Source: a virus
DNA: 64,000 nucleotides
Reading direction: 5' to 3' (one strand)
IMG/VR virus record: IMGVR_UViG_3300012979_000037
Span: 1-64,000 of that record
Shown: positions 27,416-58,832 of the stretch, one piece after another
Position numbering within the stretch: the first letter of the stretch is position 1
Layout of the letters: each line of letters opens with the position of its first letter
The notes under the pieces: generated by a model
Databases searched by the model: none
What the model saw: only the letters and a program-made list of their open reading frames with translations
Told to the model about the DNA's origin: nothing
Made by a program: the position numbers and the translations under genes

Positions 27416-27416
27416 A

Positions 27417-34171: not shown

Positions 34172-34606
34172 ATGAGTATATTAGATGATGAAAATATTGT
34201 AGTAGAAAGTATTAAAAGAGATATCAATAATCCTTTTTTAACGCTAAGTGAATATTTAAAGGATTTTGATATAGAGGGATTTATGGAAGTAGATAAAGAA
34301 CTTGTAAAAAGAGTTTTATCTCAACTAAACCCTCCAGTACTATACGAGTATAAATTTAATTTTGAGTTTAAGGCAGACTGTATAAAATTAAATCTTTTAA
34401 ATTCAAATGATAGATTCATATGTAACGTTTTACTCATTAAAAAATTTTTTCATTGGACTGACGAAAGTATCTGGTTATATTTCGCTCTTAATATAAATTC
34501 TAATTTACGATTATTTGATAGAGATGATATTACTTTTCAAAATTTTATAAAAAGACTCGACACCACATATAATTTTAGAGAAGGTAATTTAAAATTTAAA
34601 CAATAA
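34172..34606 (+). CDS. ILDDE-leader family protein, short-leader form (MSILDDENIVVESIKRDINNPF)
   Basis: Track ORF 34148; the Met at 34172 gives the family-type start. Confidence 0.55.
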   Translation: MSILDDENIVVESIKRDINNPFLTLSEYLKDFDIEGFMEVDKELVKRVLSQLNPPVLYEYKFNFEFKADCIKLNLLNSNDRFICNVLLIKKFFHWTDESIWLYFALNINSNLRLFDRDDITFQNFIKRLDTTYNFREGNLKFKQ

Positions 34607-35052
34607 TGAATAAACTTTATAAATCCATATTAGATGATGAAGATGCTTTAATAGGTGATGCTATTAAGGAATCTAAAAATCCATTCCTTACTATTAAAAA
34701 TAACTATATTAAAAGAGGTAATAAATTTAGCATAGAAGATTTAGAAGTATTAGATAAAAAGGTATTTACATATAAATATTCAAAGTATAAATATAAAAAA
34801 TATGTAAATTTTAAAAAAGAGTATGATGAAGGAAACCATATAATAAAACCTAAATATAAATGGAGATATACAGACTCTTACATAAATTTATTGGATTCCA
34901 ATGATATAGACTTACTATTTATATTCTTTACAGATGCTGGTACATTAAATATTTATATTGAAAACTGTAACAATGATTGGATTGATTTTCGATCACATAT
35001 AATTGATAAATATAATTTAACTCTAGACGTGCATAATTATTATATAATATAA
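34606..35052 (+). CDS. ILDDE-leader family protein (MNKLYKSILDDEDALIGDAIKESKNPF)
   Basis: Family leader on the + strand. Confidence 0.6.
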   Translation: MNKLYKSILDDEDALIGDAIKESKNPFLTIKNNYIKRGNKFSIEDLEVLDKKVFTYKYSKYKYKKYVNFKKEYDEGNHIIKPKYKWRYTDSYINLLDSNDIDLLFIFFTDAGTLNIYIENCNNDWIDFRSHIIDKYNLTLDVHNYYII

Positions 35053-37692: not shown

Positions 37693-37722
37693 AAGAGAAG
37701 CCCTCGAGCTTCTCTTTTTTAT
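37693..37722. terminator. bidirectional rho-independent terminator between convergent genes
   Basis: Sequence aaaaagagaagccctcgagcttctcttttttat with A-run and T-run flanks. Confidence 0.6.
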
Positions 37723-38189
37723 TATAAATAAAGTGTAAATGTTTCTACTTTATCACCAGGAAATGATTCTGCAGTAAAATCAAATTTTTTTCGTAAAATG
37801 TTTGATATTATTTTATATTCTTTAAATTTGTAATAATCATTACTATAAAAATAAATTCTTATATATTTATCTTCGAACGATATGTAAAAAAACACAGGAT
37901 ATTTAAGTACATAACTAGGTCTTGCTATAACTTGTAATCTATTACTTTTAAACATACCAAAATCTCTCCCATAGTCAGGTTTTAACTTATCAAGTTTTAA
38001 ATCCTTAAATATAGAATTCATTAAGTAATATAATTCATCATCAGGAATATTTTGTAATTTTTTGTTATAATTTAACCAAGTAGAGAGAATAGTAATAAAT
38101 GGATTTTTAAAGTCATCATTAAGTCTACCTATCAACTCTTCTTCATCATCTAAAATAGATTCTCTTATATAATCATTTAGTGTTTTCAT
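37722..38189 (-). CDS. ILDDE-leader family protein (MKTLNDYIRESILDDEEELIGRLNDDFKNPF)
   Basis: Family leader; ATGA overlap with the upstream NMNAT-like gene. Confidence 0.6.
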   Translation of the reverse strand: MKTLNDYIRESILDDEEELIGRLNDDFKNPFITILSTWLNYNKKLQNIPDDELYYLMNSIFKDLKLDKLKPDYGRDFGMFKSNRLQVIARPSYVLKYPVFFYISFEDKYIRIYFYSNDYYKFKEYKIISNILRKKFDFTAESFPGDKVETFTLYL

Positions 38190-39357: not shown

Positions 39358-39804
39358 TTATTTTTCTAAATAATACCAACCTTGAAATTTATCAGCTGGT
39401 ACATCAATATGTTCAAAATCATATTTTTTAATAAAACTCTTTATAAATTTAAGAGCATTAGGGCCAAATTTTTCTTTTGAATTAGATATAGTATTATCAA
39501 CTAGTAAACAGCAAGCATTTTTTGGTAATATAGGTGTTTGACAACTAAATGAAATTTCAAATAAAGTAGTTGAAGTACTCTCTATAATTATTCTTATAAA
39601 GTTCTTTCCAACAAAATACCTCACTCCATTTGGTAGAGGAAATTTAGACATAATTCCCTCAGCATATCTTTCCCAAGCTCTATAACTATTTTTCAACTCA
39701 TCATATTTAATCTTTAATACTCGAAATGGATTTTGAGTATCCTTGATTGAGTTTCCAATCAAAGTATCTTCGTCATCTAATATGGATTCGTATAATGTTT
39801 TCAT
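39358..39804 (-). CDS. ILDDE-leader family protein (MKTLYESILDDEDTLIGNSIKDTQNPF)
   Basis: Family leader. Confidence 0.6.
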   Translation of the reverse strand: MKTLYESILDDEDTLIGNSIKDTQNPFRVLKIKYDELKNSYRAWERYAEGIMSKFPLPNGVRYFVGKNFIRIIIESTSTTLFEISFSCQTPILPKNACCLLVDNTISNSKEKFGPNALKFIKSFIKKYDFEHIDVPADKFQGWYYLEK

Positions 39805-39816
39805 TATATTAGTATT

Positions 39817-40257
39817 TTATTGTAAATAGTAAATATTTTTTGAAGCGTGTTTCAAATTATACTTTTTAGCCCAAGATTTCATATAATATTTCATTTTCTT
39901 TTGACCCCATTCTCCATATTCTGAAAATTCTATAAATAATTTACAATCATATGAAATTCCATTATATGAAAATTCATCATCTAATGTAATATAACATAAT
40001 GATATATTATGATCATCATGTATACAAAACAATTTTTTATCTATTATATTAATCTCGAACGCAGTCAATTCAGAATTAAGAGGTAACTCAAGTGGTTTTA
40101 AAATATTTGAAATATCTTTTTGTTTTCCAAAAGGGATTTTTTTACCATTTGATATATAATAATTATATAATACTATAAAAGGATTTTGTGAGTCCTTAAT
40201 AGAGTTGCCTATTAAAACATCTTCGTCATCTAATATGGATTCATATAATGTTTTCAT
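39817..40257 (-). CDS. ILDDE-leader family protein (MKTLYESILDDEDVLIGNSIKDSQNPF)
   Basis: Family leader. Confidence 0.6.
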   Translation of the reverse strand: MKTLYESILDDEDVLIGNSIKDSQNPFIVLYNYYISNGKKIPFGKQKDISNILKPLELPLNSELTAFEINIIDKKLFCIHDDHNISLCYITLDDEFSYNGISYDCKLFIEFSEYGEWGQKKMKYYMKSWAKKYNLKHASKNIYYLQ

Positions 40258-40709
40258 AATTTAAATACTCGCACAATTTTATTATTGTTGCCTTTTGTTG
40301 TTTTAGCACCAAACTGTTTATTAATTTTATTTTCAATAGATTCATATTCATTTTGAGTTAAATCATAAACTTTCAGTTTATCCTTATCTGAATAATCATC
40401 TCTATCATAATCATTCATAAATTCTATTTTAGCTTCGTTTGCATTGATCTTATTAATAAACAAAAATGGCAATGTTCCCTCAAACCAATAATATAAATCA
40501 TCTCCGCTTGATTCCCAATGACAATATTTTTGATCTCCAGCTATATAAATTTCATTATCATTCAACCATTTGCAGCATTCTGTAAATTTATCTCTCTTAA
40601 TGAATTTTTTAATAGTATCACACCATTGAGCTAATTCAACAGCCTGTCCGATCAATACATCTTCATCATCTAATATAGATTCTCTTATATAATCATTTAA
40701 TGTTTTCAT
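40254..40709 (-). CDS. ILDDE-leader family protein (MKTLNDYIRESILDDEDVLIGQAVE)
   Basis: Family leader. Confidence 0.6.
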   Translation of the reverse strand: MKTLNDYIRESILDDEDVLIGQAVELAQWCDTIKKFIKRDKFTECCKWLNDNEIYIAGDQKYCHWESSGDDLYYWFEGTLPFLFINKINANEAKIEFMNDYDRDDYSDKDKLKVYDLTQNEYESIENKINKQFGAKTTKGNNNKIVRVFKL

Positions 40710-40710
40710 A

Positions 40711-41205
40711 TTATTGATAAATGTAAATTTCTCCTACTCTATAAGGACTTTTTTTAGTTTTTAATTTATATTTTTTACACAATTTACTTGGTATTGCACT
40801 CCAAGCTTGTTTTGATTTAATGTTGTTTTCGTTGTGAATATTGATCGTTGAGATTGAATTTATTGTCATTATAAAGCAACCTACACCATTAATTGAATTA
40901 TCTTTATAGTATATAAATGAAATATCCGGAATTCTAATTTGTTGATATTTATTAAATATACCTACCGTTCTTTCTTCATCAATCCAAGTGATTGGTTTAA
41001 TTTCAACGTCACTCTTATCCTTAAAGACACTCATTATATCTTTTTGAAACCCTTCACTTCTAAACACCTCTAACAAATCCTTTTGCTTACAATTTGGATT
41101 ACTAATGAGTTCTTGAAGAGTATGGAACCAGCTCTCTGATAAATTCTTTGCTCTACCAATCAACTCTTCTTCATCATCTAATATGGATTCATATAATTTT
41201 TTCAT
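40711..41205 (-). CDS. ILDDE-leader family protein (MKKLYESILDDEEELIGRAKN)
   Basis: Family leader; first gene of the second minus-strand array. Confidence 0.6.
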   Translation of the reverse strand: MKKLYESILDDEEELIGRAKNLSESWFHTLQELISNPNCKQKDLLEVFRSEGFQKDIMSVFKDKSDVEIKPITWIDEERTVGIFNKYQQIRIPDISFIYYKDNSINGVGCFIMTINSISTINIHNENNIKSKQAWSAIPSKLCKKYKLKTKKSPYRVGEIYIYQ

Positions 41206-42633: not shown

Positions 42634-43314
42634 ATGATACTTGATGATGAAGATATTTTAATACAAGCTGCTATAGATTCAGCTTGTTACAAAATGGTTG
42701 ATTTAGGTTTATCAGTTAAATGGGCTAATAAGAACGTCGGAGCTTCTCACCCTGAAGATGCTGGATTGTATTTTCAATGGGGTGATACTATAGGGTATAC
42801 GGCAGATCAAGTAGGTAAAGATAAAACATTTAATTGGGAATCTTATTTCGATACTACAGATAGAGGGGATACTTTTAATATATACAATAATAATGGAGGT
42901 TTAACAGTACTATTATCTGCAGACGATGCTGCAACAGTTCATATGGGATCTCAATACAGAATGCCAACAGTAGATGAAATAAGAGAACTTATGAATAATA
43001 CAAAACAGACATTTATCGATTTAAATGATAATGGGTATAGTAAAATTCAAGCCAAAAATGGGGCTATCAAATCTGGAAAGTTAAAAGGAGTAAGATTTAC
43101 AGGTTCAAATGGTAATAGTATTTTTATACCAGCAGCAGGTTATTGTGCTGATCCTTGTATGAATAGTATTGGAGTATCTGGTACATTATGGTCTTCTAGT
43201 TTGAGTGGTAGTTACAACGGTTGTGCTAGAAGTTTGAATTTCTATTATGATGCGGATGTTTATGATATTAGTGATAGGCGCAATTATGGGGCATGTGTTC
43301 GTGGTGTAGAATAA
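42634..43314 (+). CDS. ILDDE-leader family protein (short leader MILDDEDILI) with Fib_succ_major-type C-terminal domain
   Basis: GLSVKWANKNVGA...GLYFQWG matches the Fibrobacter succinogenes major paralogous domain signature common in Bacteroidetes. Confidence 0.55.
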   Translation: MILDDEDILIQAAIDSACYKMVDLGLSVKWANKNVGASHPEDAGLYFQWGDTIGYTADQVGKDKTFNWESYFDTTDRGDTFNIYNNNGGLTVLLSADDAATVHMGSQYRMPTVDEIRELMNNTKQTFIDLNDNGYSKIQAKNGAIKSGKLKGVRFTGSNGNSIFIPAAGYCADPCMNSIGVSGTLWSSSLSGSYNGCARSLNFYYDADVYDISDRRNYGACVRGVE

Positions 43315-43394: not shown

Positions 43395-44039
43395 ATGAAT
43401 TACAAGAATTTAACAGAACTCGAAAAGAATCAATTAGTTAAACAGTACGAAAACTTGATCGTGAAGATCACAAATCAATTTGCGAAAAGTGTAAAGTGTC
43501 CTTGGGAGGATTTACAATCATATGCTTATGAAGGTTTTGCTTTAGCAATTCAAAAGTATGATGATCAACGTTCTACAATGACATTTACACAATATGCTGC
43601 ATATTATATGCGAAATAACATTTTGAATTCACTTAATAACGAATTGCGTACCGTTAAGTTGGATGCATATGCTCAAAAGAAGGTGGAGCAAGGTGGAGGA
43701 CAATCTTTTAATACCATTTCAATTGATAATTGTAATGATGAAGAAGGAGTACAAACTCACAAGATTTTGATGAGTATTGCAATAGAGGATAAATTTTCTA
43801 ATGGGGATGTGTTTGATTATTTATATTCGCGTTTGGAGGATGAGTTCTCCTATCGAGATTGTGAAATCTTTTATAAAACCTTTGGATTAAAAGAGTTTGA
43901 TGTTGAGAAAGGTATGGATATCGCAAAACAATATGATATCTCTGCCGGACTGGTGTCACAAAAGGTCTCCAAAATTATTAAATGGATTCGCAAGGATAAT
44001 GAATTATGTGAACAATTAAGTGAATTACTTAAGTTTTGA
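43395..44039 (+). CDS. RNA polymerase sigma factor (sigma-70-family-like, phage-encoded)
   Basis: Region-2-like SYAYEGFALAIQKYDDQRSTMTFTQYAAYYMRNNI and region-4-like HTH ISAGLVSQKVSKIIKWIRK. Confidence 0.5.
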   Translation: MNYKNLTELEKNQLVKQYENLIVKITNQFAKSVKCPWEDLQSYAYEGFALAIQKYDDQRSTMTFTQYAAYYMRNNILNSLNNELRTVKLDAYAQKKVEQGGGQSFNTISIDNCNDEEGVQTHKILMSIAIEDKFSNGDVFDYLYSRLEDEFSYRDCEIFYKTFGLKEFDVEKGMDIAKQYDISAGLVSQKVSKIIKWIRKDNELCEQLSELLKF

Positions 44040-44062: not shown

Positions 44063-44662
44063 ATGATAATTAGAAAGAAGTTTAATGTAGAAAGTGCTCA
44101 CATTGTACGTAATTGCACTTCAGAGAGATGCTCTCACTCAATTCACGGCCACTCTGCTGTGATTGAAGTATTTTTGGAAAGTAATTTTTTGGATAATGCG
44201 CAAATGGTTTATGATTTTGGACTAATGAAGTCTACTATTAAACAATTTGTTGATTCTATGGATCATTGCTATCTATTGTGTTCTCAGGATAGTGAGGAGT
44301 TTAAGAGTTTTATTAAGTCTACCTGTGATCGTTGGATTGAACTTCCATTTAATCCTTCAGCAGAGATGTTGAGTATGTTTGTATTTTCAGGAGTTCAAAA
44401 GATTTTGAATAATACATATAAAAATAATGGGGAGGATTATATTCAAACACACGCTGTTCGTTATCACGAAACAACTACAGGTTATGCTGAGTGTAATGCT
44501 ATGGATGTTGCTAGATTTCAAAATATTATTGATTTTGATTCTATCATATATTCAGAAGGTGTAATGAAAGATTGGGGTAGTGATTTGAAATCTATCTTTG
44601 AGGGAGATGTAGTTACTAATCCTCTTATTAAACAACAAATAAAGTTAAATACAATTCTTTAA
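44063..44662 (+). CDS. queD: 6-carboxy-5,6,7,8-tetrahydropterin synthase QueD-like (with C-terminal extension)
   Basis: Motifs FNVESAHIV and CSHSIHGHSAVIEV (Cys-x-x-x-His-Gly-His) match the QueD/PTPS zinc site. Confidence 0.65.
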   Translation: MIIRKKFNVESAHIVRNCTSERCSHSIHGHSAVIEVFLESNFLDNAQMVYDFGLMKSTIKQFVDSMDHCYLLCSQDSEEFKSFIKSTCDRWIELPFNPSAEMLSMFVFSGVQKILNNTYKNNGEDYIQTHAVRYHETTTGYAECNAMDVARFQNIIDFDSIIYSEGVMKDWGSDLKSIFEGDVVTNPLIKQQIKLNTIL

Positions 44663-44663
44663 T

Positions 44664-45470
44664 ATGTTACCAGTAGTAGAAATTTTTACAAGTATTCAAG
44701 GTGAAGGTAAATTCACAGGAGTTCCTTCAATCTTTGTGAGAGTAAGTGGTTGTAATTTGAGATGTGTGTTTAAAGACTCAGTATGTGATACTCCTTATAC
44801 TTCATTTAATCCAGAGCATAGTTTATATAAATCAATGGATGAATTGGTAAAAGCATTTAAGGAAGAGCAAGAAAGATATCCACGAGTTAAACACGTAGTA
44901 GTTACAGGTGGTGAACCATTAATGTATAAGAGGGATTTGGAAGAGTTTTTAGCTCGTGTGTATGATGATACAATGATGATCACTATTGAAACAAACGGTA
45001 CTAAACCAATTTTGAATCCATTGAATGGTAAGTTTAGAATTGAGTTATATAGTGTGAGTCCAAAATTGAGTACCTCAGTAGGTAAACCAGGTAAGTATAA
45101 TGGTGTAGAAGTAACACAAGGAATGATTGAACGTCACAATTGTGAGAGACTTAATTATCAAAACTTGGTGGATATTGCAACAAGTGCGAACTATCAATTT
45201 AAGTTTGTATATAGTGGTCCAGAGTGTGTTGAAGAGATTAAGAATATTTATAGAGAGATGGGAAAGATTGTTTGTAATCAAGATGATCAATTCTATAATT
45301 TCTATATGAAACATCACCCAATGAAACACACAATGCTTATGCCAGAGGGCATTAAAGTAGATCAATTGGATCAAAAAACAAAGGAAATGGCTCAAGTATG
45401 TTTAGAAAATGGTTGGCAATTTACAGATCGTTTACACATTCGTATTTGGGGTGATATGAGAGGAGTGTAA
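44664..45470 (+). CDS. queE: 7-carboxy-7-deazaguanine synthase QueE (radical SAM)
   Basis: PVVEIFTSIQGEGKFTGVPSIFVRVSGCNLRCVF..DSVCDT at the N-terminus; C-terminal RIWGDMRGV parallels LLWGNKRGV of bacterial QueE. Confidence 0.75.
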   Translation: MLPVVEIFTSIQGEGKFTGVPSIFVRVSGCNLRCVFKDSVCDTPYTSFNPEHSLYKSMDELVKAFKEEQERYPRVKHVVVTGGEPLMYKRDLEEFLARVYDDTMMITIETNGTKPILNPLNGKFRIELYSVSPKLSTSVGKPGKYNGVEVTQGMIERHNCERLNYQNLVDIATSANYQFKFVYSGPECVEEIKNIYREMGKIVCNQDDQFYNFYMKHHPMKHTMLMPEGIKVDQLDQKTKEMAQVCLENGWQFTDRLHIRIWGDMRGV

Positions 45471-45473
45471 GTT

Positions 45474-45686
45474 ATGAAAAGTGTATTTTTATTAGAACAA
45501 AAGATTTTTAATGGCACTATATTAATAGCCACTATTAATACCGGATTTAGTACTAAAGAATTAGCAGAAAAGGCATTACAATCTACAAAAAAAGCCAATG
45601 AAGATGGTGAGTTTATTAATACATATAATATAAACGAAATCCAAATTTATGAGGAAGAACAAGAAATACCAATAATGAATAAATAA
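45474..45686 (+). CDS. hypothetical protein
   Basis: 70-aa ORF. Confidence 0.4.
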   Translation: MKSVFLLEQKIFNGTILIATINTGFSTKELAEKALQSTKKANEDGEFINTYNINEIQIYEEEQEIPIMNK

Positions 45687-45694
45687 AATCTGCG

Positions 45695-46000
45695 ATGAAA
45701 ACTAGACTTTTAAAGAAGCTTAGAAAAACAGCAAAGAATAAATTCTTTCCAGTTTTACTTGAAACCGGAATAGTTATTTCGACATATAATGAAACCGGAT
45801 ATAATAGATTGAATTTAACATACAGTATTGCTGGTAGTCCATATGCTTGGGTTAATCAATTTTCGCCTTGTTGGGTATTTGACACACAAAAGTCTATTCA
45901 AAAAATGTTAGATCGTGTTCGCCGAGATTTTATCATTGAATATATTAAAGCTGAAAAGGAAAAAAGGAGATTAAATAACGAATTCAATAAAATACAATAA
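45695..46000 (+). CDS. hypothetical protein; paralog of 15600..15956
   Basis: Shared N-terminus KTRLLKKLRKTAKNK. Confidence 0.45.
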   Translation: MKTRLLKKLRKTAKNKFFPVLLETGIVISTYNETGYNRLNLTYSIAGSPYAWVNQFSPCWVFDTQKSIQKMLDRVRRDFIIEYIKAEKEKRRLNNEFNKIQ

Positions 46001-46002
46001 TT

Positions 46003-46371
46003 ATGAAGAAAGAACAATATCCACTATATGTGGTAAATGAAGAGAAGAAAGCAATTTCTTGCAAAATTAAAACTAAAGGAGAATTTTTTATAGGTGTAGC
46101 GAAATGCTGCGACGAGGATACATTTGATATTCAACGAGGTAAAGACATCGCATATAATCGTTGTCGATTGGAGATTAATAAATATGTCCTCAATCAAGAC
46201 ATTGTTGTAAGGGACACCATTCAAGACATTATTCGTCAATACGATGGCATGGGGCTTTCAAAACAATGTAATAAGGCTTGGTATGATTATTTAGAGGATA
46301 TCAAACGCCGTATTAAAGTACGTAAAGCTATTATCTACCATACTGAACAAAAAATTAAAGAACTTTTGTAA
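46003..46371 (+). CDS. hypothetical protein
   Basis: 122-aa ORF. Confidence 0.45.
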   Translation: MKKEQYPLYVVNEEKKAISCKIKTKGEFFIGVAKCCDEDTFDIQRGKDIAYNRCRLEINKYVLNQDIVVRDTIQDIIRQYDGMGLSKQCNKAWYDYLEDIKRRIKVRKAIIYHTEQKIKELL

Positions 46372-46511
46372 TTTATATATAGCAATATCTCCATTGGATG
46401 TTGAGTATATGGTAGATAACGAATTAAAAAGTCCATCAAGAAATACAATATCAAAGTTACTGAATTGACCAGTGGCGTAGAAGATGGAATTAAACAAATA
46501 TATCGAACACA

Positions 46512-46934
46512 ATGATTAAAAGAGAATTGAAAAACGTAAAAGTGGATGATTTAATCCCATATGAAGCCAACCCACGTAGAAATAACAAATCTGCAAAAAT
46601 CGTAGCAAAATCAATTGAAGCGTATGGATATATAAATCCAATTCTAGTGACAGATAAAAATATCATCCTCGCTGGACATACTCGTCTTAAAGCACTTAAA
46701 CTTTTAGGTATCGAAGAGGTGGAAGTTTTAGTTATTTCTGGTTTGAGTGATGAACAAATCCACGGTTTTGTAATTGCGGATAACAGGGTAGGAGAATATT
46801 CTAGATGGAATTATGCGGCAGTTGATCGCATGATGGCTGGTGTTTCAAAAGATGATAAATTACTAAAAGAGCTTGGTATGAGTTCGTTTGTTGATAATAA
46901 AAAAGATTTGGAGGATTTGATTAATGGAAACTAA
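46512..46934 (+). CDS. ParB-like nuclease domain protein (mini DpdB-like partner of DpdA)
   Basis: LIPYEANPRRNN...LAGHTRLKALKLLG is the ParB N-terminal domain signature; overlaps the DpdA start. Confidence 0.55.
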   Translation: MIKRELKNVKVDDLIPYEANPRRNNKSAKIVAKSIEAYGYINPILVTDKNIILAGHTRLKALKLLGIEEVEVLVISGLSDEQIHGFVIADNRVGEYSRWNYAAVDRMMAGVSKDDKLLKELGMSSFVDNKKDLEDLINGN

Positions 46935-47790
46935 TAATGAACATAAATTAGTATATGGTTTAGGTGGAGGCTTAGTTTATTCTTGTGGTAGTAAAGGTAA
47001 ATGGAAACAAGTTCTACCAAAACTCTTGGCTTCGATCGATAATTGTGTATTGATTTCGACAGTTGATATGCCAAAAATCGCGGCTCAATTTATTGAACAA
47101 TGTGTTGGTGCAGATCGTTTATATATAGACTCTGGTGGTTTTACATTATATAAACAACAAAACAAACTAGGTGCAGATAATCCAGAGTTCCATAAGGAAT
47201 GTGAAAGAATGAAAAATAAATTTCTCAACCTTCTTAAAAGCACTAAATGTTGTGAATGTTTCGAGCTCGATAATGAATATTTCCGTCACGATGAAGATCT
47301 AATGTCACCAAAAAATTATTGCCGCGAGGAAGTAAAAGCAATTACCGGGTTCTATCCTACACCAGTATTCAAAATGCATCAAGGTTTCGAATATTGGAAG
47401 CGCCTCTGTGAGAGTGATATGTATGATAAACTGGCGATTGGTGGTTTAGCTATGACAAAAGATTGGGGTAAGTATAGTGATGAATTCCGTAAAATGATGA
47501 ACTATGCTCGTGATTGTGGTAAAAAGGTCCATTTGCTTGGATGCCAAAATGTGGATACTTTTAAAACGGTTAAACCAGATACCATCGATTACTCTATATT
47601 TCAATACGCCATCAACTTAGCTCATGCGAAAAAGGAACATCCTGAATTGGAAACTTATGAGGACTTGAAAATTCATGCAGTTTTGTATGCATTTGCCCGA
47701 GCAAAATCGCGTAGTTTCTTATATGATCATTTTATAGAGGGTGAAGATGACGAATTAGAAATAATTAATGAAAATTATAAAGAAATATAA
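46924..47790 (+). CDS. dpdA: DpdA-like DNA-guanine transglycosylase (TGT superfamily)
   Basis: LYIDSGGFTLYKQ parallels TGT LTDSGGFQ; LAIGGLAMTKDW parallels TGT AVGGLAVGE; no zinc-binding subdomain, as in phage DpdA. Confidence 0.55.
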   Translation: METNNEHKLVYGLGGGLVYSCGSKGKWKQVLPKLLASIDNCVLISTVDMPKIAAQFIEQCVGADRLYIDSGGFTLYKQQNKLGADNPEFHKECERMKNKFLNLLKSTKCCECFELDNEYFRHDEDLMSPKNYCREEVKAITGFYPTPVFKMHQGFEYWKRLCESDMYDKLAIGGLAMTKDWGKYSDEFRKMMNYARDCGKKVHLLGCQNVDTFKTVKPDTIDYSIFQYAINLAHAKKEHPELETYEDLKIHAVLYAFARAKSRSFLYDHFIEGEDDELEIINENYKEI

Positions 47791-47830
47791 TAAATTATAT
47801 ATTTTATATTAAATTTAAACTGTAAAGAAT

Positions 47831-48787
47831 ATGAATAATGAAATTAAAGTAAAAGATTTAAAGAGAGAGTATGATAGTACGTTTGCTCCATCTCAAGAGT
47901 ATTTAGATTCAATGCCTGATCTTCAAAATAGTGACTTTGTAGGTATTCCAATTGATTTTGTGGGTATTCATAACTTCCACTTACCAATCCGTATCAAAGA
48001 AAAGAGCGGAGATACCCAAGAAGTGATGGCTAGTATTACAGGTACAGTGTCTTTGGATGCTTCTAATCGAGGAATTAATATGTCCCGTATTATTCGTACA
48101 TTCTATAAATCAAAAGATGATATTTTTGATATTAATAAATTGGAGGAGGTATTGAGAAACTATCAAAAGGATTTGAAGACGTTTGATGCTCACCTTCTTA
48201 TGAATTTTAAATATCGTATTTGGCAAGACGCTCTTCGTAGTGTTAAAGAAGATGGTACTCCAGAAGGTGGTTGGCAATATTATAATATTACATTTGATTG
48301 CAATTTAGATCATAATGGAGAATTTAAAAAGATTATGTGGATGGATTACGTTTATAGTTCGGCTTGCCCTTGTAGTACAGCTCTTTCTGAACACGCTGCT
48401 TTAACTCGAGGTGTATATGGTATTCCTCACTCACAACGTTCTATTGCAAGAATTGGCATAGAATTTGATGAGTTGCTTTGGATCGAGGATATATTAGATA
48501 TGTGTAATCGAGCTCTTACAACTGAAACATTAGTATTCTGTAAGAGACAAGATGAACAAAGTTTTGCCGAGAAAAATGGAGCTCAACCTAAATTTGTAGA
48601 AGATGCTATACGATATATGGCTAATGAATTGAATACTGATCAACGAGTATTAGATTATAAAGTAATTTGTTCTCACCAGGAAAGTTTACATAGTCATGAG
48701 GCGGTCGCTGTTATTACAAAGGGGTTAAAAAATTCAGTATTCAATCATCACGTAACTCTTGGAGAGTGGCATAGTATGAAGGTATAG
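47831..48787 (+). CDS. folE2: GTP cyclohydrolase I type 2 (FolE2 / GCYH-IB)
   Basis: PDLQ...VGIPIDFVGI...RGINMSRII matches the FolE2/MptA family; 318 aa. Confidence 0.65.
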   Translation: MNNEIKVKDLKREYDSTFAPSQEYLDSMPDLQNSDFVGIPIDFVGIHNFHLPIRIKEKSGDTQEVMASITGTVSLDASNRGINMSRIIRTFYKSKDDIFDINKLEEVLRNYQKDLKTFDAHLLMNFKYRIWQDALRSVKEDGTPEGGWQYYNITFDCNLDHNGEFKKIMWMDYVYSSACPCSTALSEHAALTRGVYGIPHSQRSIARIGIEFDELLWIEDILDMCNRALTTETLVFCKRQDEQSFAEKNGAQPKFVEDAIRYMANELNTDQRVLDYKVICSHQESLHSHEAVAVITKGLKNSVFNHHVTLGEWHSMKV

Positions 48788-48832: not shown

Positions 48833-49981
48833 ATGCAATGTATTCTTTTATTATATAAACATAAAGATACATTGCATTTACTTATGAATATTATGAATAG
48901 TAGAAATTATAAATATCATTACTTTTATCGGATAATTAATAAAAATACAAATCAATATTATTTCGGAATACATAGCACAAATAATCTCAATGATAATTAT
49001 ATGGGCTCAGGAACGTTCCTGAAAAAAGAATATAGAGAACATGGTAAAGAGAATTTTATAAAAGAAATTTTAAAATTTTTCGACGATAGAAAAACTCTAT
49101 TGGAATATGAAAAAAAGATAGTTAATGAAGATATTTTATCAGATCCCCTATGTTTAAATATAGCGAAGGGTGGCGTAACTTCTTCAGAGGAACATTTTAC
49201 CACAGGATTAGTGACTGTGCGTGATATTCATGGAAATTGTTTTGATGTGAAAAAAAACGATCCACGATACTTATCCGGAGAATTACAATCTGTGAATAAG
49301 AATATGGTAACAGTGCGGGATAAATTTGGTAAAACATTTAAAGTTAGTATAGATGATCCCCGATATACATCAGGTGAATTAATTATAATATCAAAAGGTA
49401 ATAAAGGAATAACTGGAAGGATTGCTGTATCTAAAGCTGGTCAAAATAAATTCATATTGAAAGAAGAGTTAAATGAGTATATTTCGAACGGGTGGGTTCG
49501 CAATTCAATTCAAAAAGGCAGAATAAGTCCAACTAAAAATAAAGTGTGGATATATAAAGATAATGTAATGAAATGTGTAGATAAAAATAACGTGTCTAAA
49601 TATATAAATGATGGTTGGAAAAAAGGTCGTTTAGTCAATGCATTAAAAGGTCAAATAGGAATAATGAAGGATGGTGTATCAAAATATATAAAACGCGATG
49701 AATTAAATCAATATATTTCAGATGGGTGGAGACTGGGAATGAAAACACGAAATAAAGGGAAAATCACAGTATATGATGATTCCGGTAAAATATTTCACAT
49801 AACAAAAGATGATTCGCGGTGGATAAATAAGGAAGTTAAATTAATACAATTTAAAAACGGATCACCAGCAAAAGGACTAATATATATAAATAAAAATAAT
49901 AATATTAAAAGGGTGAAACCTGACGTATTACAAGAATATTTAAATAATGGCTGGAGTAAAGGGATGAAATCCAAAAATTAA
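48833..49981 (+). CDS. GIY-YIG homing endonuclease (Seg-like) with repeated DNA-binding modules
   Basis: KYHYFYRIINKNTNQYYFGIHST...YMGSG is the GIY-YIG motif (start probably at Met 48887 or 48896). It is followed by repeated VTVRD..G..F.V...DPRY.SGEL and (N/S)DGW(K/R).G(R/M) modules. Confidence 0.65.
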   Translation: MQCILLLYKHKDTLHLLMNIMNSRNYKYHYFYRIINKNTNQYYFGIHSTNNLNDNYMGSGTFLKKEYREHGKENFIKEILKFFDDRKTLLEYEKKIVNEDILSDPLCLNIAKGGVTSSEEHFTTGLVTVRDIHGNCFDVKKNDPRYLSGELQSVNKNMVTVRDKFGKTFKVSIDDPRYTSGELIIISKGNKGITGRIAVSKAGQNKFILKEELNEYISNGWVRNSIQKGRISPTKNKVWIYKDNVMKCVDKNNVSKYINDGWKKGRLVNALKGQIGIMKDGVSKYIKRDELNQYISDGWRLGMKTRNKGKITVYDDSGKIFHITKDDSRWINKEVKLIQFKNGSPAKGLIYINKNNNIKRVKPDVLQEYLNNGWSKGMKSKN

Positions 49982-52273: not shown

Positions 52274-53239
52274 ATGAAAATAGTAGGATATATATTACCC
52301 AATAGTCAATTACCTAACCCTTTTTTATTAACTCATATAAATTTTTCTTTTGGTGAGATTTATATGAAGAATAATGTTTATCAAAAAATTGGTATACATG
52401 GAGGATGTAGTGAGTTAAAAAGAGTAGTAGATTTAAAGAATGAAAACCCAAACCTCAAAGTATTGCTTTCAATTACAAGTTTAGTTGAATTAGATGATAA
52501 TAAGAGAGATGGTGGATTTTCTCAATTGTGTCAAGATTCGTATCAACGCCAATTATTTATAATGGATTGTTTGGAGTTATGCAATAAGTTTAATTTAGAT
52601 GGGATTGATTTGGATTGGGAATTTCCAACACTTAATTGGAGTAATCAAACGCCTTTACCTAATGATATTGAAAATTATACTCTTTTAGTAAAAGAAATGA
52701 GAAGTATTTTTAAAGATAAATTGATTACTATAGCTACCCACGTAAATGCTAAATATATGAATATACGTGAATTAGAAAAATATGTAGATTTTTTCAACGT
52801 AATGTGTTACGATTTAGGTGAAGGAGAAAAGTTACAGTACCATAATGCTATAGATAATCAATGCTTTAATATTAAGGATTCTATTAAAATATATAAAAAC
52901 ATATTGAAAGACTCGAACAAGTATGTAATGGGAATCCCTCTTTATATTAGATATAATTACAAATCTGAGAATAGATATTTGCCTATTAATAAAGTAGACT
53001 TTTCAAATCCAAAGTATATAATTAAAAAAGATAATACAATACCATTTTTATATGAAAAAAGAAATGGCGTTTATAAACCAATAGGATCTTTTGAAGATAA
53101 GGATTCAATTGACATTAAATCCTGTATTGTTAGAAGTAATGATTTAGGTGGTTTTATGATATGGAATTTAGCACACGACATTGACTGCAAATATTTAATA
53201 ATGATTAATAATTCTCTTATTATAAAAGAAAACATATAA
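52274..53239 (+). CDS. glycoside hydrolase family 18 (chitinase-like) protein
   Basis: FNLDGIDLDWEFP is the GH18 catalytic DxxDxDxE motif; NLKVLLSI upstream. Confidence 0.65.
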   Translation: MKIVGYILPNSQLPNPFLLTHINFSFGEIYMKNNVYQKIGIHGGCSELKRVVDLKNENPNLKVLLSITSLVELDDNKRDGGFSQLCQDSYQRQLFIMDCLELCNKFNLDGIDLDWEFPTLNWSNQTPLPNDIENYTLLVKEMRSIFKDKLITIATHVNAKYMNIRELEKYVDFFNVMCYDLGEGEKLQYHNAIDNQCFNIKDSIKIYKNILKDSNKYVMGIPLYIRYNYKSENRYLPINKVDFSNPKYIIKKDNTIPFLYEKRNGVYKPIGSFEDKDSIDIKSCIVRSNDLGGFMIWNLAHDIDCKYLIMINNSLIIKENI

Positions 53240-53961: not shown

Positions 53962-54786
53962 ATGATTACAAATTGTGAATTACCAAATTCTCTTTTAAAT
54001 TATAATATGGAGTTAAATGATTATGACTTTGTATTATTTCATTTGTTGAAAGATAATAGTGAATATAGAGAATACTATTATAATATGCGTAGAACTCATC
54101 CAGAACGATTGATGATTCTAGATAATTCAGCATATGAATTTTTTGTGAAGGGAGAAGAATTGGATTTAGATGAGTTTAAATATTATATTGAGGACTTACA
54201 ACCTGATTATTATATCTTACCAGATAAGTTGATGGATCATGATAAGACCATTGAAATGGTTGATGAGTTTATTAAAACATATAATATGGAATCTAAAAAT
54301 ATTTTCAATCCTAAACCTTTGGCTGTAGCTCAAGGAAATACTAGTGAGGAATTAATTGATTGTCTTTTGAAGTATAAAAGTTTAAATATAGATTATGTTG
54401 GTATACCATTTCATTTAAGTTTTTATAAAACATATAATATATTAGATGAAGTATCTCATGAGTTCCTAACAACGTATGAAGAATGTAATGAAGATCTTTT
54501 ATATGCAATGGGGCGAGTGAGTTGGATTAAAGATCATAAACATATTTTAAGTTTATTTGACAAAGTTCATTTATTGGGATCTCATTGTCCTTTAGAAAAA
54601 TTGTTTTATAAAGATTTATATAGTATGGATACTGGATATCCAGTTAAGTTAGGTATAGTTGAAACTAAGTTGTTTGAAGAAAAACAAAAACCTAACGTTA
54701 TTATTGATGAGTTTTTGGATAAAGAATTGAATGAAAATCAAATAAGTTTAATCAAAGAAAATATTAATATCTTTAAAAATATATGA
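53962..54786 (+). CDS. hypothetical protein (possible distant TGT/TIM-barrel fold)
   Basis: 274 aa; weak resemblance to the DpdA/TGT region (LMILDNSAYEFF...PLAVAQGNTSEE) only. Confidence 0.4.
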   Translation: MITNCELPNSLLNYNMELNDYDFVLFHLLKDNSEYREYYYNMRRTHPERLMILDNSAYEFFVKGEELDLDEFKYYIEDLQPDYYILPDKLMDHDKTIEMVDEFIKTYNMESKNIFNPKPLAVAQGNTSEELIDCLLKYKSLNIDYVGIPFHLSFYKTYNILDEVSHEFLTTYEECNEDLLYAMGRVSWIKDHKHILSLFDKVHLLGSHCPLEKLFYKDLYSMDTGYPVKLGIVETKLFEEKQKPNVIIDEFLDKELNENQISLIKENINIFKNI

Positions 54787-55325
54787 GCAAAATTTTTATA
54801 AATTTAGTAGGTACTCAAGGTACAGGAAAGACCACGATTTTAAAATTGATGGAATCTGAAATGAAGTTTAATATCATTACTGAAGTTGTTCGTAAATTGA
54901 ATAAAACTGGAGTAAATATTAATGAATCTGGTAACGATGAAGGACAGCAGATCATATTCAAGACTTATGTAGATACTTTTAATAATATCGATAATGAATT
55001 GAATTGGGTGAGTGATCGAGGTTTGATAGATGTTGTGTCTTATACTAAATACTTATATGATCATGGAAATGTAAGTAAACAGGTGTATGAAGAACAATTA
55101 GCTTTTTTGAATGATTGGTATAAAACTCATAAAGTTATTATTTGTTACTTCCCAATTGAGTTTGATGTTGTTAATGATGGCGTAAGATCTGTAAATGAGG
55201 AGTTTAGAAAAGAGGTGGATAATAATATCCGTTGGATTCTAAATGAGTTGCAAATAGATCATTATATTATAGAAGGAAGTGTTTACGACCGTTTGGAACT
55301 TATGAAAGCAATTACAGAGTTTTAA
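54783..55325 (+). CDS. P-loop NTPase / nucleotide kinase-like protein
   Basis: Walker A NLVGTQGTGKTTILKLM. Confidence 0.5.
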   Translation: MSKIFINLVGTQGTGKTTILKLMESEMKFNIITEVVRKLNKTGVNINESGNDEGQQIIFKTYVDTFNNIDNELNWVSDRGLIDVVSYTKYLYDHGNVSKQVYEEQLAFLNDWYKTHKVIICYFPIEFDVVNDGVRSVNEEFRKEVDNNIRWILNELQIDHYIIEGSVYDRLELMKAITEF

Positions 55326-55351
55326 ATAATAACATCATATAAAATACAGAA

Positions 55352-55378
55352 AAGGAGCTTTAATGCTCCTTTTCTTTT
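55352..55378. terminator. bidirectional rho-independent terminator
   Basis: Sequence aaaggagctttaatgctccttttctttt between convergent genes. Confidence 0.55.
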
Positions 55379-56493
55379 ATGGTATTTTCGAAATATATAT
55401 ACCAACCATCTAATGTACTTGGAATAATTAATTCTCCTTTTAATATGGATTCTCTATATTGCCAATTATAATGTGTAAAAGCTTTTTTATAATCTTTAGT
55501 AAATACAATCTTTATATTTTTAGGATACTTTATAATAATATTATTCAAACCAGTGCAATCACTAATATCCAATATCTCGTACATATTTATATTCTTTAAT
55601 GAATATGGGAGATTTGTATTATATATACTATAACGTTTGTAATTTCTATAATAGTCTATTAAATTAGACATATTCTTTATTTTAATTCTTTCTATACAAT
55701 CATTATAGTTATTGTAGGTGTCGAATTCATAATTATTTATAAAGAGATTAAAAATTTGCTTGGAAAGTTTACATTGAGAATCCTTTGGTTCTAAAATTAA
55801 GCTTTCAATATTATTGGTTTTAAAGTTGTTTAATTGAATTTTACTTGAAGTCTTAATTATAACTTTACCTAACTTGTCACTACAAATATTCCAATTATTT
55901 AACTCTAAAACATCTTTAGAATCACTAACAATTTCTAAGCAAGGAGTACTTGTAGTGGAATCTTTTCTTTTTACACTATTCTCATAATATTTCTTATAAT
56001 CTACTTCGCTACTATTTTCAAACTTGAGATTATATCCAATATACTTGTTTAAATCATATAGGTGTATTGTGGAATTAGATAGTTTAGATCCAATATGAAA
56101 CCTAATGTTATTAGATTCAATTCTACCAACATTATCTAATAGAGAATCACAAACATCAATATAATTAAAATAAATAGAAGGAGCTTCAAATCCAGATATA
56201 TTGAATTCCTTACAATAATTGATAAGACTCTTAATAACTAATGTACTCCCAATATTATAATGCTCATTAAGAAACGTTATAAGATCATTTTGAATACAAA
56301 TAGGATTATAGTCACCCAATGTTAATAACTCGTAGTTTTTAGAAAAGCTTAATAAACTACATACACAATCATTACAATTAAATATTCTACAAGGAATATT
56401 TACGAGATCTTTAGCTTTCTCAATTAAATCAATCTCGTCATAATCAAAAATACTAAAAGAATTTTGAAATTCAGCAAGAGGAACGTCGTCCAT
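55360..56493 (-). CDS. hypothetical protein
   Basis: 377-aa ORF. Confidence 0.5.
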   Translation of the reverse strand: MDDVPLAEFQNSFSIFDYDEIDLIEKAKDLVNIPCRIFNCNDCVCSLLSFSKNYELLTLGDYNPICIQNDLITFLNEHYNIGSTLVIKSLINYCKEFNISGFEAPSIYFNYIDVCDSLLDNVGRIESNNIRFHIGSKLSNSTIHLYDLNKYIGYNLKFENSSEVDYKKYYENSVKRKDSTTSTPCLEIVSDSKDVLELNNWNICSDKLGKVIIKTSSKIQLNNFKTNNIESLILEPKDSQCKLSKQIFNLFINNYEFDTYNNYNDCIERIKIKNMSNLIDYYRNYKRYSIYNTNLPYSLKNINMYEILDISDCTGLNNIIIKYPKNIKIVFTKDYKKAFTHYNWQYRESILKGELIIPSTLDGWYIYFENTIKEKEH

Positions 56494-56498
56494 TTAAA

Positions 56499-57041
56499 TT
56501 AATTAATTAGTAATGAGGCAGCTGTGATTACAGTAGCGTATGTTGCTCCAAATGCCATCATCTCCAACCAATATATTTGAGCTCTTTTCCAAGATTTAGT
56601 ACACAATCCAACAATAGCTGGAATTGCTGCACCCACCAAAGGAACATAAAAGATATTCCAACAAACTATAAAACACCATAATAATGCGGCTGCTGCTGCA
56701 ATCTTCGCGGACACTTCATGCACAGCACCTTCTAATTTATTTGCTCTAAAAGCTGGAGCTGCTCCAACAAAGCAAATTGCAGCTGAAGTAAAGAATGCTA
56801 AAAAAGTCAAGTTTTTAGACCACTCAGACCATAAATCACTTATTTCCAACCAACCTGGAAGTAAGGTCGTTCCCATTATAAACATAAATATGGTGAATAT
56901 ATATCCTAATTTATCTTTTTTACTATTGTATAAATAAAATGTCTCAGACAAACTCTTTGGAATACCAAATATTGATAATGCTGTAATATTGTATATTAAA
57001 AATATTGCAAATGAAATGCACACTGTAATTAATTGCCACAT
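56499..57041 (-). CDS. polytopic membrane protein (5-6 TM; possible small transporter)
   Basis: Hydrophobic throughout; locally higher GC and Ala-rich (AIAAAAALLW). Confidence 0.45.
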   Translation of the reverse strand: MWQLITVCISFAIFLIYNITALSIFGIPKSLSETFYLYNSKKDKLGYIFTIFMFIMGTTLLPGWLEISDLWSEWSKNLTFLAFFTSAAICFVGAAPAFRANKLEGAVHEVSAKIAAAAALLWCFIVCWNIFYVPLVGAAIPAIVGLCTKSWKRAQIYWLEMMAFGATYATVITAASLLIN

Positions 57042-57055
57042 AATTTTAGGTTTTT

Positions 57056-57997
57056 TTAAAATAACATTGTTTTAGTATATATAACAAATTCTTTTGATTT
57101 AGTTTTCTCTATAAAACCTTCTTTTTTGAGTTTCTTTTTAATATCTTTATAGTTTTGAACATAATTTGTATAGTTCGAAATTGTCTCTCTAAATATTCTG
57201 GAGAAATTGTATAGTGAATTTTTTAAATCCATTCTTGGGACATATATTAATAATGCATTATGCATATATGCTAATGGAGAATATACAATTCTAACAATGT
57301 AGTTGCTATTACAATCTAATAAAATTTCAAAAGATGGCATTTTGCAGTCAAAATCTGTATTATCGTATAATCTTACTCTCCATCTAACACGTTCTCTAAT
57401 CTTGTCAATGTCAACACTTAAAAAATCTCTTAAAAAATCATCTAATTCTCCATTGTTAAGTCTTTTGTAAATTACATTTTCATCACCACCATTTCCAAGA
57501 TCTTGAAGAACTCTTACTACAAATGAATTAAAAAAGTCATTTGACATTTTAGCAGCTTTTGAGATTAATTCATCCTCATCATCTAATATAGATTCTTGTA
57601 AGTTTGTTGAGAAGTAAATTTTTGATTCTCTTGTTACATTTTCTTGGGAGTCACTAGAATGCATAACATTCTTCATATCGCTCCTTCCATACTTTTCTCT
57701 AATTTGATCCTTAAGTTTGGATAGATCTTTGTTCTTTCTATTGTTTAAAATATAACCTATGGAATCTCCAGAAGACATATATTTACAAAGATCCTCATAA
57801 AAATCTTCACTTTCGTGCATTTTATAGAGATTCATTGCTTCGTCTAATGAAAGCGTTTTCTTTAATTTCTTATTAATAGAAAAACCATAACCCAATAAAA
57901 TATCTTCAATTTCTTGCTGATATCTTAAAAACTCAGGTTTGATAATAACAAACTCTAGTTTATCCATTACTTCCAATATATCATATAAAGTCTTCAT
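57056..57997 (-). CDS. nucleoside diphosphate kinase domain fused in-frame to an ILDDE-leader family module
   Basis: N-terminal 140 aa: VIIKPEF...GF...LCKYMSSGDSIGYIL...NVMHSSDSQENVTRESKIYF parallels NDK (LIKPDAV, KGF, VKYMNSGPVVAMVW, NIIHGSDSVESAEKEIALWF). Then STNLQESILDDEDELISKAAK opens a family-type C-terminal part. Confidence 0.5.
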   Translation of the reverse strand: MKTLYDILEVMDKLEFVIIKPEFLRYQQEIEDILLGYGFSINKKLKKTLSLDEAMNLYKMHESEDFYEDLCKYMSSGDSIGYILNNRKNKDLSKLKDQIREKYGRSDMKNVMHSSDSQENVTRESKIYFSTNLQESILDDEDELISKAAKMSNDFFNSFVVRVLQDLGNGGDENVIYKRLNNGELDDFLRDFLSVDIDKIRERVRWRVRLYDNTDFDCKMPSFEILLDCNSNYIVRIVYSPLAYMHNALLIYVPRMDLKNSLYNFSRIFRETISNYTNYVQNYKDIKKKLKKEGFIEKTKSKEFVIYTKTMLF

Positions 57998-58077: not shown

Positions 58078-58497
58078 ATGATACTGGACGACGAAGACAT
58101 TTTGATTAGAGAAGCTAGCAATAGTTGCCAAGATCCTATTAAATTATTATTTGATTGCTATGACGATGAATCAAGTTCTTTGAATTTATTAAATAGATAT
58201 ATTAATATTGAAGGATTTAAATGGGAGCAAAGTGTTCCATATTACATACTAGTAGATAACGAAGATTTAATTCACTGTCAGATTTTAAAAGATCCTCATG
58301 GTGTCGGATCAATGAATATTACCACATATCCAGGCAATGAAGAATGTGAAAATAGATTACACAACATATTTATAACTTTGGATATGATTTATTTCAAAAT
58401 AAAGGATCCTTTTAGAGGATATTATGTAAGATATGATTTACACGATATGTGTTATATCCCTAGTTACTTTGAAAGAATAAAAAGAATAATAGTATGA
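58078..58497 (+). CDS. ILDDE-leader family protein, short-leader form (MILDDEDILIREASNS)
   Basis: Family leader. Confidence 0.55.
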   Translation: MILDDEDILIREASNSCQDPIKLLFDCYDDESSSLNLLNRYINIEGFKWEQSVPYYILVDNEDLIHCQILKDPHGVGSMNITTYPGNEECENRLHNIFITLDMIYFKIKDPFRGYYVRYDLHDMCYIPSYFERIKRIIV

Positions 58498-58832
58498 TAT
58501 CAATATTTTTAAAGGAAGAAAACTCCATAATTAATTTGGATAAAATTGTTTATACACAAATTCATTATGAAAACGTATTTAAACAACCAAATGATTATCA
58601 ATATACTAAGCAATTTTATGTAAGTGTGGTTTTTGAAGATGGGTTGACAAAAAGAATTTCACCATTTTATGATAATAGAGCAAAGGCTGAGATGTTTGTA
58701 TCTTGTTTATTTGATAAAATAAAATTTATAGAAAATCGTCATAACATTTTTATAGATGCTAGTGAAATTGATTTAGAGGTTCGAAAAGAGAAAAATACTG
58801 AAATATTAGAATTATTAACACAACATGCTTAA
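58494..58832 (+). CDS. hypothetical protein
   Basis: 112-aa ORF. Confidence 0.5.
   Translation: MISIFLKEENSIINLDKIVYTQIHYENVFKQPNDYQYTKQFYVSVVFEDGLTKRISPFYDNRAKAEMFVSCLFDKIKFIENRHNIFIDASEIDLEVRKEKNTEILELLTQHA

Follow-up and report, generated by a model that had tools for sequence, protein, structure and literature searches.

The first 64,000 nt of the virus record IMGVR_UViG_3300012979_000037 in IMG/VR (positions 1-64,000, one strand, 5' to 3', G+C content 29%; hereafter the window) raise the question of whether, and with which enzymes, the phage exchanges the guanine of its DNA for a 7-deazaguanine derivative. Such a substitution is one of the main ways in which phages escape restriction enzymes and Cas9. 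An initial annotation had placed a five-gene cluster for this modification at 44063-48787, encoding QueD, QueE, a short ParB-domain protein, DpdA and FolE2. All five open reading frames (ORFs) are found at exactly these coordinates, closely spaced and all read from the + strand, and their families were assigned by profiles. That annotation had missed a module at 53962-55325, encoding a DpdA3-type transglycosylase and a kinase-like protein, and three small ORFs at 45474-46371. The presence of the DpdA3/kinase module changes the reading of the system: we consider it probable that the phage uses a two-module system to replace guanine in its DNA with a 7-deazaguanine derivative. Related loci used for comparison are given as L numbers.

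A Probable Divergent Member of the Classical DpdA Family

The identity of the central enzyme, a 288-aa protein encoded at 46924-47790 (+), is not obvious from standard family models. It has no match in Pfam, NCBIfam or PADLOC, and only phrog_887 'queuine tRNA-ribosyltransferase' was hit (9e-12), so that the assignment as DpdA needed more evidence. PDB searches with the single sequence and with a shallow profile (effective number of sequences, Neff, 2.3) were empty. The AlphaFold model (predicted local distance difference test, pLDDT, 90.8; predicted template modelling score, pTM, 0.87) is a (beta/alpha)8 TIM barrel of the tRNA-guanine transglycosylase (TGT) type, and its best matches in a viral structure library are phage proteins annotated as queuine tRNA-ribosyltransferase (1e-8 to 1e-4). 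A profile search of 1.8 billion representatives linked the family to many proteins of ~250 aa, the first of which, P0128 (9e-16), is homologous to the DpdAs of phages CAjan, JenP2, PaMx25, phiSM, Sonali and Salmonella 7-11, with values of 1e-7 to 1e-13 for CAjan, JenP2, phiSM and Sonali.

The residues that are conserved point in the same direction. Across 61 diverse members only D69-S70-G71, D116, H203, L205, G206 and D222 are invariant, and D69 sits in a DSGGF motif together with F73. With the deep profile the best PDB match is the DpdA structure 7ui4, in which the motifs DSGAF/DCGAF, GG, VHxLG and SxDS are in register. The profile alignment pairs D69/F73, L205 and D222 with D95/F99, L236 and D256 of Salmonella DpdA, where D95 is the general acid/base, F99 a gate, L236 a stacking residue and D256 the nucleophile, while D130 recognizes the base (PMC10164549). 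D116 would correspond to D130 by motif order, as this stretch lies outside the alignment. The initial annotation had made its call of a DpdA-type transglycosylase depend on the catalytic Asp residues, and all three (D69, D116 and D222) are invariant in the 61 sequences.

Several results weigh against this assignment. Searches of solved structures are unspecific: Foldseek with the model against the PDB returned generic TIM barrels only, and in these searches such barrels score as high as DpdA/TGT. The deep profile reaches 7ui4 weakly (E=0.027), and direct hhalign comparison also gives weak values for CAjan DpdA (E 0.056) and phiSM DpdA (E 0.004), with the motifs in register. Membership in the DpdA3 family was considered and ruled out, since BLASTP and hhalign against the DpdA3 proteins of phiST, immuto and CP220 find only a ~20-residue HLLG patch in common. 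The DpdA identity held up, and on fold, profile links and invariant aspartates we regard the protein as a probable, divergent offshoot of the classical phage DpdAs.

Within the module, conservation between the window and its relatives is highest for this DpdA: it is 74-83% identical in loci where QueE reaches 46-61% and DpdA3 47-48%, which indicates unusually strong constraint on the enzyme. DpdA-family members adjoin QueC in many viral contigs. A distant member, P0188 (465 aa), is fused to a Vut_1/YhhQ-type domain, which we take to be a putative preQ0/preQ1 transporter; such a fusion would link uptake of the base directly to the transglycosylase.

A Minimal ParB-Type Protein as Probable Partner of DpdA

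The gene upstream of DpdA, which overlaps it by 11 nt, encodes a 140-aa protein (46512-46934, +) with only the ParB/Srx N-terminal, nucleoside triphosphate (NTP)-binding domain, here called mini-ParB. Pfam ParB_N matches residues 5-90 (8e-7, 29.4 bits against a cut-off of 26.3) and phrog_620 matches at 5e-35. The best solved relatives are the CTPase domains of Spo0J/ParB/Noc (E 4e-4 to 3e-3), with the GxxRxxA box aligned. The clade has the motifs NPR(H/R)NNxSA and ILAG(H/N)TRxKALKLLG, the second of which holds the GxxRxxA box; this box is kept in 11 of 11 mini-ParBs and reads GHTRLKA in the window. By these motifs mini-ParB is classified as canonical ParB type. Of a partition ParB only the N-domain was matched: TIGR00180 stays under its cut-off, the 140 aa hold no helix-turn-helix or dimerization domain, and Pfam scans of the window gave no ParA-type family.

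The initial annotation had proposed a DpdB-like partner, and here its two halves part. Bacterial DpdB belongs to the DndB/SspE subgroup and has a DGQQR NTPase motif and a C-terminal SspE-like helical domain (PMC10164549). There are no DpdB models among the matches of mini-ParB in PADLOC or NCBIfam, and as it has neither the DGQQR motif nor the C-terminal domain it is not a bacterial DpdB. Because it carries GxxRxxA instead of DGQQR and ends without a C-terminal domain, 'DpdB-like' describes a functional analogy and not orthology. The partner role fared better. In 12 of 13 related contigs the ParB gene lies directly against the DpdA gene or overlaps it, and the adjacency is seen in the window, in Campylobacter phage CC_R7 and in L004-6, L009 and L016-L023; the exception is L007/L008, where a homing-endonuclease-like gene stands upstream of DpdA instead. 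Between the window and CC_R7, ParB and DpdA are both 56% identical, compared with 22% for the terminase and 26% for QueE. The equal conservation of the two proteins beside so divergent a terminase means that the pair behaves as one conserved module, and this co-conservation together with the adjacency suggests that mini-ParB is probably a functional partner of DpdA.

The alternative is that mini-ParB is no cofactor of DpdA. It would instead be a nuclease, a regulator or a general accessory of phage enzymes that modify or handle DNA, and its adjacency would be incidental or regulatory. Its strongest non-ParB profiles are indeed ParB domains of methyltransferase fusions: phrog_498, which represents N-terminal ParB domains of DNA methyltransferase fusions, matches at 3e-30, and in PADLOC mini-ParB matches only the N-terminal part of the MTase_II model (2e-21). 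Phage modification enzymes of other kinds, namely methyltransferases and CmoX, likewise have small ParBc proteins beside them, described as 'function unknown' (PMC12783734), and we found no literature that links such proteins to phage DpdA. The validated DpdAs of CAjan and 9g, moreover, work without a ParB neighbor (PMC6884629), as we also see at the CAjan DpdA locus; this speaks against a general cofactor role, as does the L007/L008 arrangement, and implies that ParB is not universally needed. Against such an accessory role, the start/stop overlap of the two genes is kept in most lineages, the two proteins are equally conserved across very distant phages, and the pairing recurs in either gene order at unrelated DpdA loci, with ParB-like genes (140-330 aa) adjoining ~24 of 39 DpdA-family ORFs of the fetched loci. 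One of these is phiSM, where the DpdA gene CEPG_00053 (L105 3129-4303) is followed by the overlapping CEPG_00052, a 154-aa 'ParB-like partition protein'. The DNA of phiSM, which contains dPreQ1/mdPreQ1, was studied experimentally, and ParB goes unmentioned in the two key papers. There is bacterial precedent as well, as bacterial DpdA requires the ATPase activity of the ParB-like DpdB (PMC10164549). Taken together, a role unconnected with DpdA seems rather unlikely. One apparent natural ParB-DpdA fusion, in L066, was withdrawn: the domain coordinates showed that the ORF had been called too long and ran across a distinct ParB gene in a different frame.

We thus retain mini-ParB as the probable partner, and propose that the first insertion module consists of the divergent classical DpdA translationally coupled to this 140-aa protein. 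If the need of bacterial DpdA for DpdB is taken as the analogy, mini-ParB would probably bind or clamp DNA in an NTP-dependent manner and so let DpdA flip out and exchange guanine. The ParB-like genes at many unrelated phage DpdA clusters, including that of phiSM, are thereby candidates for a cofactor that would do in phages what DpdB does in bacteria. A speculative view, narrower than the two-route reading given below and as doubtful, is that mini-ParB represents a widespread, so far unremarked phage counterpart of DpdB on which a large subset of phage DpdAs would depend.

A DpdA3 and Kinase-Like Module

About 5 kb downstream of the 44063-48787 cluster, the window encodes a second transglycosylase of 274 aa (53962-54786, +), whose gene overlaps that of a 180-aa P-loop nucleoside/nucleotide-kinase-like protein (54783-55325, +). 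BLASTP relates the transglycosylase to gp206 of Flavobacterium phage immuto_2-6A (1e-27) and to the phiST DpdA3 CGPG_00065 (6e-9), and tblastn to CP220-type Campylobacter phages (~1e-18); among cultured phages, its homologs occur in CP220-type Campylobacter phages and immuto phages. It keeps all residues that are invariant in the family (D54, D88, D223 and H203-L-G206) and is, by these sequence criteria, classed as a true DpdA3. The kinase-like protein matches Pfam AAA_28 (3e-14) and dNK (2e-3) and, among PDB entries, weakly resembles a deoxynucleoside kinase (5e-3). Its homologs adjoin or lie near DpdA3 in CP220 (gp057), immuto (gp203), L009, L022 and L108-L117. We propose that DpdA3 coupled to the P-loop kinase-like protein would form the second insertion module, as in the CP220 and immuto phages, in whose DNA all G is replaced.

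DpdA3 and the classical DpdA are found together in the window, L004-6, L007, L009, L018, L022/L023, L119, L123 and CC_R7 (alignment A9 was used to scan loci for DpdA3, since A8 was too divergent). Both transglycosylases co-occur in every related lineage with enough sequence. In the searchable literature DpdA3 is treated only by PMC10516641, whose text takes the DpdA of each phage singly. There, DpdA3 phages show 100% replacement of G, and reconstitution of DpdA3 failed, DpdA3 and DpdA4 being inactive when expressed alone in E. coli (PMC10516641). The failed reconstitution is a point against assigning insertion to DpdA3. The window lineage touches on both questions, that of complete G replacement and that of the inactivity of DpdA3 and DpdA4 on their own.

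One way to divide the labor between the two modules would be by substrate, a view that we put forward only as a doubtful one: DpdA3 with its ever-present kinase (and NDK) would act on free guanine (deoxy)nucleotide, and DpdA, loaded by an NTP-gated mini-ParB clamp, on duplex DNA. The modified deoxynucleoside triphosphate from the DpdA3 step would then be incorporated during replication, and such an exchange at the nucleotide level would account for G being replaced at 100% in DpdA3 phages. The step of the classical DpdA would follow replication, serving either to exchange G that was left over or to place a second base at particular sites.

Predicted Synthesis of the Base Precursor

Both modules would draw on the biosynthesis genes of the first cluster. 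The 199-aa product of 44063-44662 (+) is a QueD-like, T-fold 6-carboxytetrahydropterin synthase that matches Pfam PTPS over its cut-off (3.4e-20), phrog_2389 (1e-18) and, under the equivalog cut-off, the QueD model TIGR03367 (5e-18). The Cys and HGH typical of QueD are retained in its C-x4-HGH motif, which differs from the LxxxHRHxF seen in DpdL and is one residue longer than what we take to be the E. coli motif, CxxxHGH. Orthologs in L004, L018 and L019 are 59-63% identical. The next ORF (44664-45470, +, 268 aa) encodes a radical-SAM 7-carboxy-7-deazaguanine synthase, QueE, with a full-length match to phrog_2076 'QueE-like' (3.4e-51) and to Pfam Radical_SAM over its cut-off (1e-10); its five best NCBIfam matches are all QueE models, each under the equivalog cut-off, and its Cys spacing, Cx3Cx6C, is common to other phage QueEs. 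FolE2 (GTP cyclohydrolase IB, 47831-48787, +, 318 aa) is the clearest case, passing the NCBIfam equivalog NF010200 (4e-78, 262.6 bits against a cut-off of 215) and matching Pfam GCHY-1 (7e-68). Given these family assignments and the established pathway, FolE2, QueD and QueE would convert GTP to 7-carboxy-7-deazaguanine (CDG), in agreement with the initial annotation of a 7-deazaguanine DNA-modification cluster.

FolE2, QueD and QueE are common to the tRNA pathway as well, and phages that carry only preQ0 genes were proposed to raise host queuosine (Q) levels (PMC6884629). The genes could therefore be auxiliary metabolic genes that boost the host queuosine-tRNA pathway or modify tRNA rather than phage DNA. 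We regard this as very improbable. Both transglycosylases belong to DNA-type DpdA families and neither is matched by the tRNA-TGT models of Pfam and NCBIfam; one of them has a DNA-binding-type ParB partner; no tRNA genes lie within the 64 kb; and homologs of DpdA3 occur in phages with fully substituted DNA (PMC10516641).

QueC and the Identity of the Installed Base

The initial annotation had noted that the window has no QueC, a PP-loop (SGGxDS) ATPase required for preQ0 or ADG, and had predicted that CDG itself would be the base in the DNA (dCDG) if the whole genome has none. The first part is confirmed. No PF06508 match was found among 96 window ORFs (Pfam, including 86 further ORFs), tblastn with nine phage QueCs gave only noise, and a profile run on all six-frame fragments of the 64 kb, for QueC or a remnant of it, reached a best E of 0.12. 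The slot after DpdA3-AAA_28, which QueC fills in L108, L109, L113 and L115-L118, is empty in the window: after 55326-55360, the next genes lie on the opposite strand (minus-strand block 55360-57997). The empty slot and the opposite-strand genes suggest that QueC was lost or relocated by rearrangement.

If the phage truly has no QueC, DpdA would insert CDG itself and the genome would carry dCDG. Further observations fit this. Relatives of the FolE2 type (L004, L018, L019 and L007) have no QueC within +-10 kb of the cluster, which is a point against a QueC-dependent base. No alternative route from CDG was seen either: the single PTPS-family ORF of the window carries Cys...HGH and a phiST DpdL query matches nothing there; Pfam scans and sequence searches found no QueF, DpdN-type or amidotransferase-type domain in the window; and a conserved unknown gene beside the module that could replace QueC was sought and not found. 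The three small ORFs at 45474-46371, between QueE and mini-ParB, were considered as novel CDG-modifying enzymes and dropped, as none of the related loci holds a homolog and the family searches gave nothing informative; without homologs there, they are not counted in the system. There is precedent for dCDG too: in an E. coli queC mutant a phage DpdA2 can insert CDG, though with low efficiency, and STSV-2 carries dCDG naturally, these being the only cases in which it was seen (PMC10516641).

The second part of the prediction is weak all the same. The window covers only part of a genome of probably 150-210 kb, and the relatives sit on metagenomic contigs of up to 209-240 kb. In the complete genome of CC_R7, QueC is ~75 kb from ParB/DpdA, in CP220 it is 46 kb from DpdA3, and in the FolE2-type 158-kb contig 3300012662_000009 it is ~40 kb from the QueD-QueE-DpdA3-FolE2 cluster, so that the lack of QueC in 64 kb says little about the final base. 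Other long FolE2-type contigs are missing from our QueC lists, but this is uninformative because the scans of viral contigs covered the best 80 of 289 and the best 80 of >575. DpdA3 phages that have no QueC or that stop at CDG carry dDG (via DpdL) or dADG in the published cases: phiST, with DpdL and no QueC, has dDG with CDG undetected, and CP220 has dADG (PMC10516641). A host QueC could also complete the pathway. We therefore think it quite unlikely that dCDG is the main base. Since every relative with long enough sequence has QueC far away, a QueC-dependent base of the dADG or dPreQ0 type is favored as somewhat more likely than dCDG. More generally, QueC is often tens of kb away, which calls for caution when the modified base is predicted from a partial genome.

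The QueC genes of the relatives have features of their own. In IMGVR_UViG_3300012662_000009 (L199 2489-4447) QueC is a 652-aa ORF in which ~410 aa, inserted in frame, interrupt the profile match and probably represent an intein; one window ORF of the set at 29924-62780 has a Pfam Intein_splicing match. FolE1-type loci (L009, L022, L023 and L024-L027) have two tandem QueC paralogs after AAA_28 that are ~33% identical, one of which may be a QueC*-like ADG synthase.

Neighboring Genes and Other Cargo

The cluster is flanked on both sides by + strand genes. Immediately upstream of QueD lies a sigma-70/ECF-family sigma factor (43395-44039), and L007/L008 have a 27%-identical homolog near the cluster. 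A GIY-YIG homing endonuclease (48833-49981) directly follows FolE2, and a 43%-identical copy stands between FolE2 and ParB in L018; with copies at both clusters, homing endonucleases seem to have targeted the modification genes repeatedly.

At least 14 ORFs share the N-terminal motif I[LR]DDE[DE]x[LI][IV], typically MKTLYESILDDEDxLIG, before divergent C-terminal parts, and from their sequences they look like a large phage paralog family. They include 34606-35052, 42634-43314, 58078-58497 and 62361-62780 on the + strand and 23118-23633, 26924-28375, 37722-38189, 39358-41205 and 57056-57997 on the - strand; in the last of these the motif comes after an NDK domain. An LLDDE variant is present in the ORFs at 22609, 25281 and 26012. 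Among the other cargo, at 52274-53239, 58825-59337 and 12845-13678, are a chitinase-like protein of the GH18 family and a radical-SAM activase resembling NrdG, and the ORF at 12845-13678 appears from its sequence to be a Band_7 protein. The Pfam scan of the window also gave Band_7/SPFH, GNAT and two metallophosphoesterase families.

Comparison With Known Systems

The system is of a known type and differs from described examples in four traits: two co-conserved transglycosylases, a minimal partner of canonical ParB type, FolE2 in place of FolE1, and an empty QueC slot. Its source is placed by sequence among uncultured, deep-branching T4-like phages, as the window encodes a terminase (34% identical to its best match) and baseplate genes of the T4 type. 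When the cluster was compared with GenBank phages by megablast, no relative emerged at the nucleotide level.

With the classical phage DpdA systems (DpdA1/DpdA2; CAjan with dPreQ0, 9g with dG+, phiSM with dPreQ1/mdPreQ1) the window shares the TGT-fold with its DSGxF/D/HxLG/D motifs and the position of DpdA among FolE-QueD-QueE genes and, with phiSM, a small overlapping ParB-like gene at DpdA. It differs in that its DpdA forms a separate, very divergent branch with similarity at the profile level only, its ParB is minimal (140 aa) and upstream of DpdA, and it has FolE2 instead of FolE1, no QueC in the cluster, and DpdA3 in addition. From bacterial Dpd, as in Salmonella Montevideo, it shares the TGT-fold, the same three Asp residues and a partner with an NTPase domain of the ParB superfamily (PMC10164549). 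In contrast to the bacterial enzyme, the phage DpdA of 288 aa is too short for the bacterial Ins8 insertion, and no dpdC-K genes and no NCBIfam or PADLOC Dpd match were found.

The DpdA3 systems comprise CP220 with dADG, phiST with dDG and immuto_2-6A with fdPreQ1 (PMC10516641). CP220 and immuto have the same pair of DpdA3 and P-loop kinase-like protein as the window, and DpdA3 phages likewise have genomes of the T4-like myovirus type. The window differs in lacking DpdL, DpdN, QueF and QueC. Whereas these phages are described with a single transglycosylase, the window lineage adds a classical DpdA with ParB.

No cultured phage other than Campylobacter phage CC_R7 (PQ092953, 180.6 kb) shares the pair of DpdA and mini-ParB. 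Its ParB and DpdA genes overlap as in the window, and it also encodes a DpdA3-like protein with a kinase, QueD, QueE and FolE. Unlike the window, CC_R7 has its pathway spread over ~165 kb (QueE at 14 kb, QueD at 68 kb, QueC, DpdA3 and kinase at 103 kb, FolE at 113 kb and ParB/DpdA at 178 kb), with QueC beside DpdA3 and a GTP cyclohydrolase that matches FolE1-type genes; by its terminase it is a distant relative. The lineage with both modules includes a cultured phage, and would offer a natural setting for separating the two types of transglycosylase by genetics.

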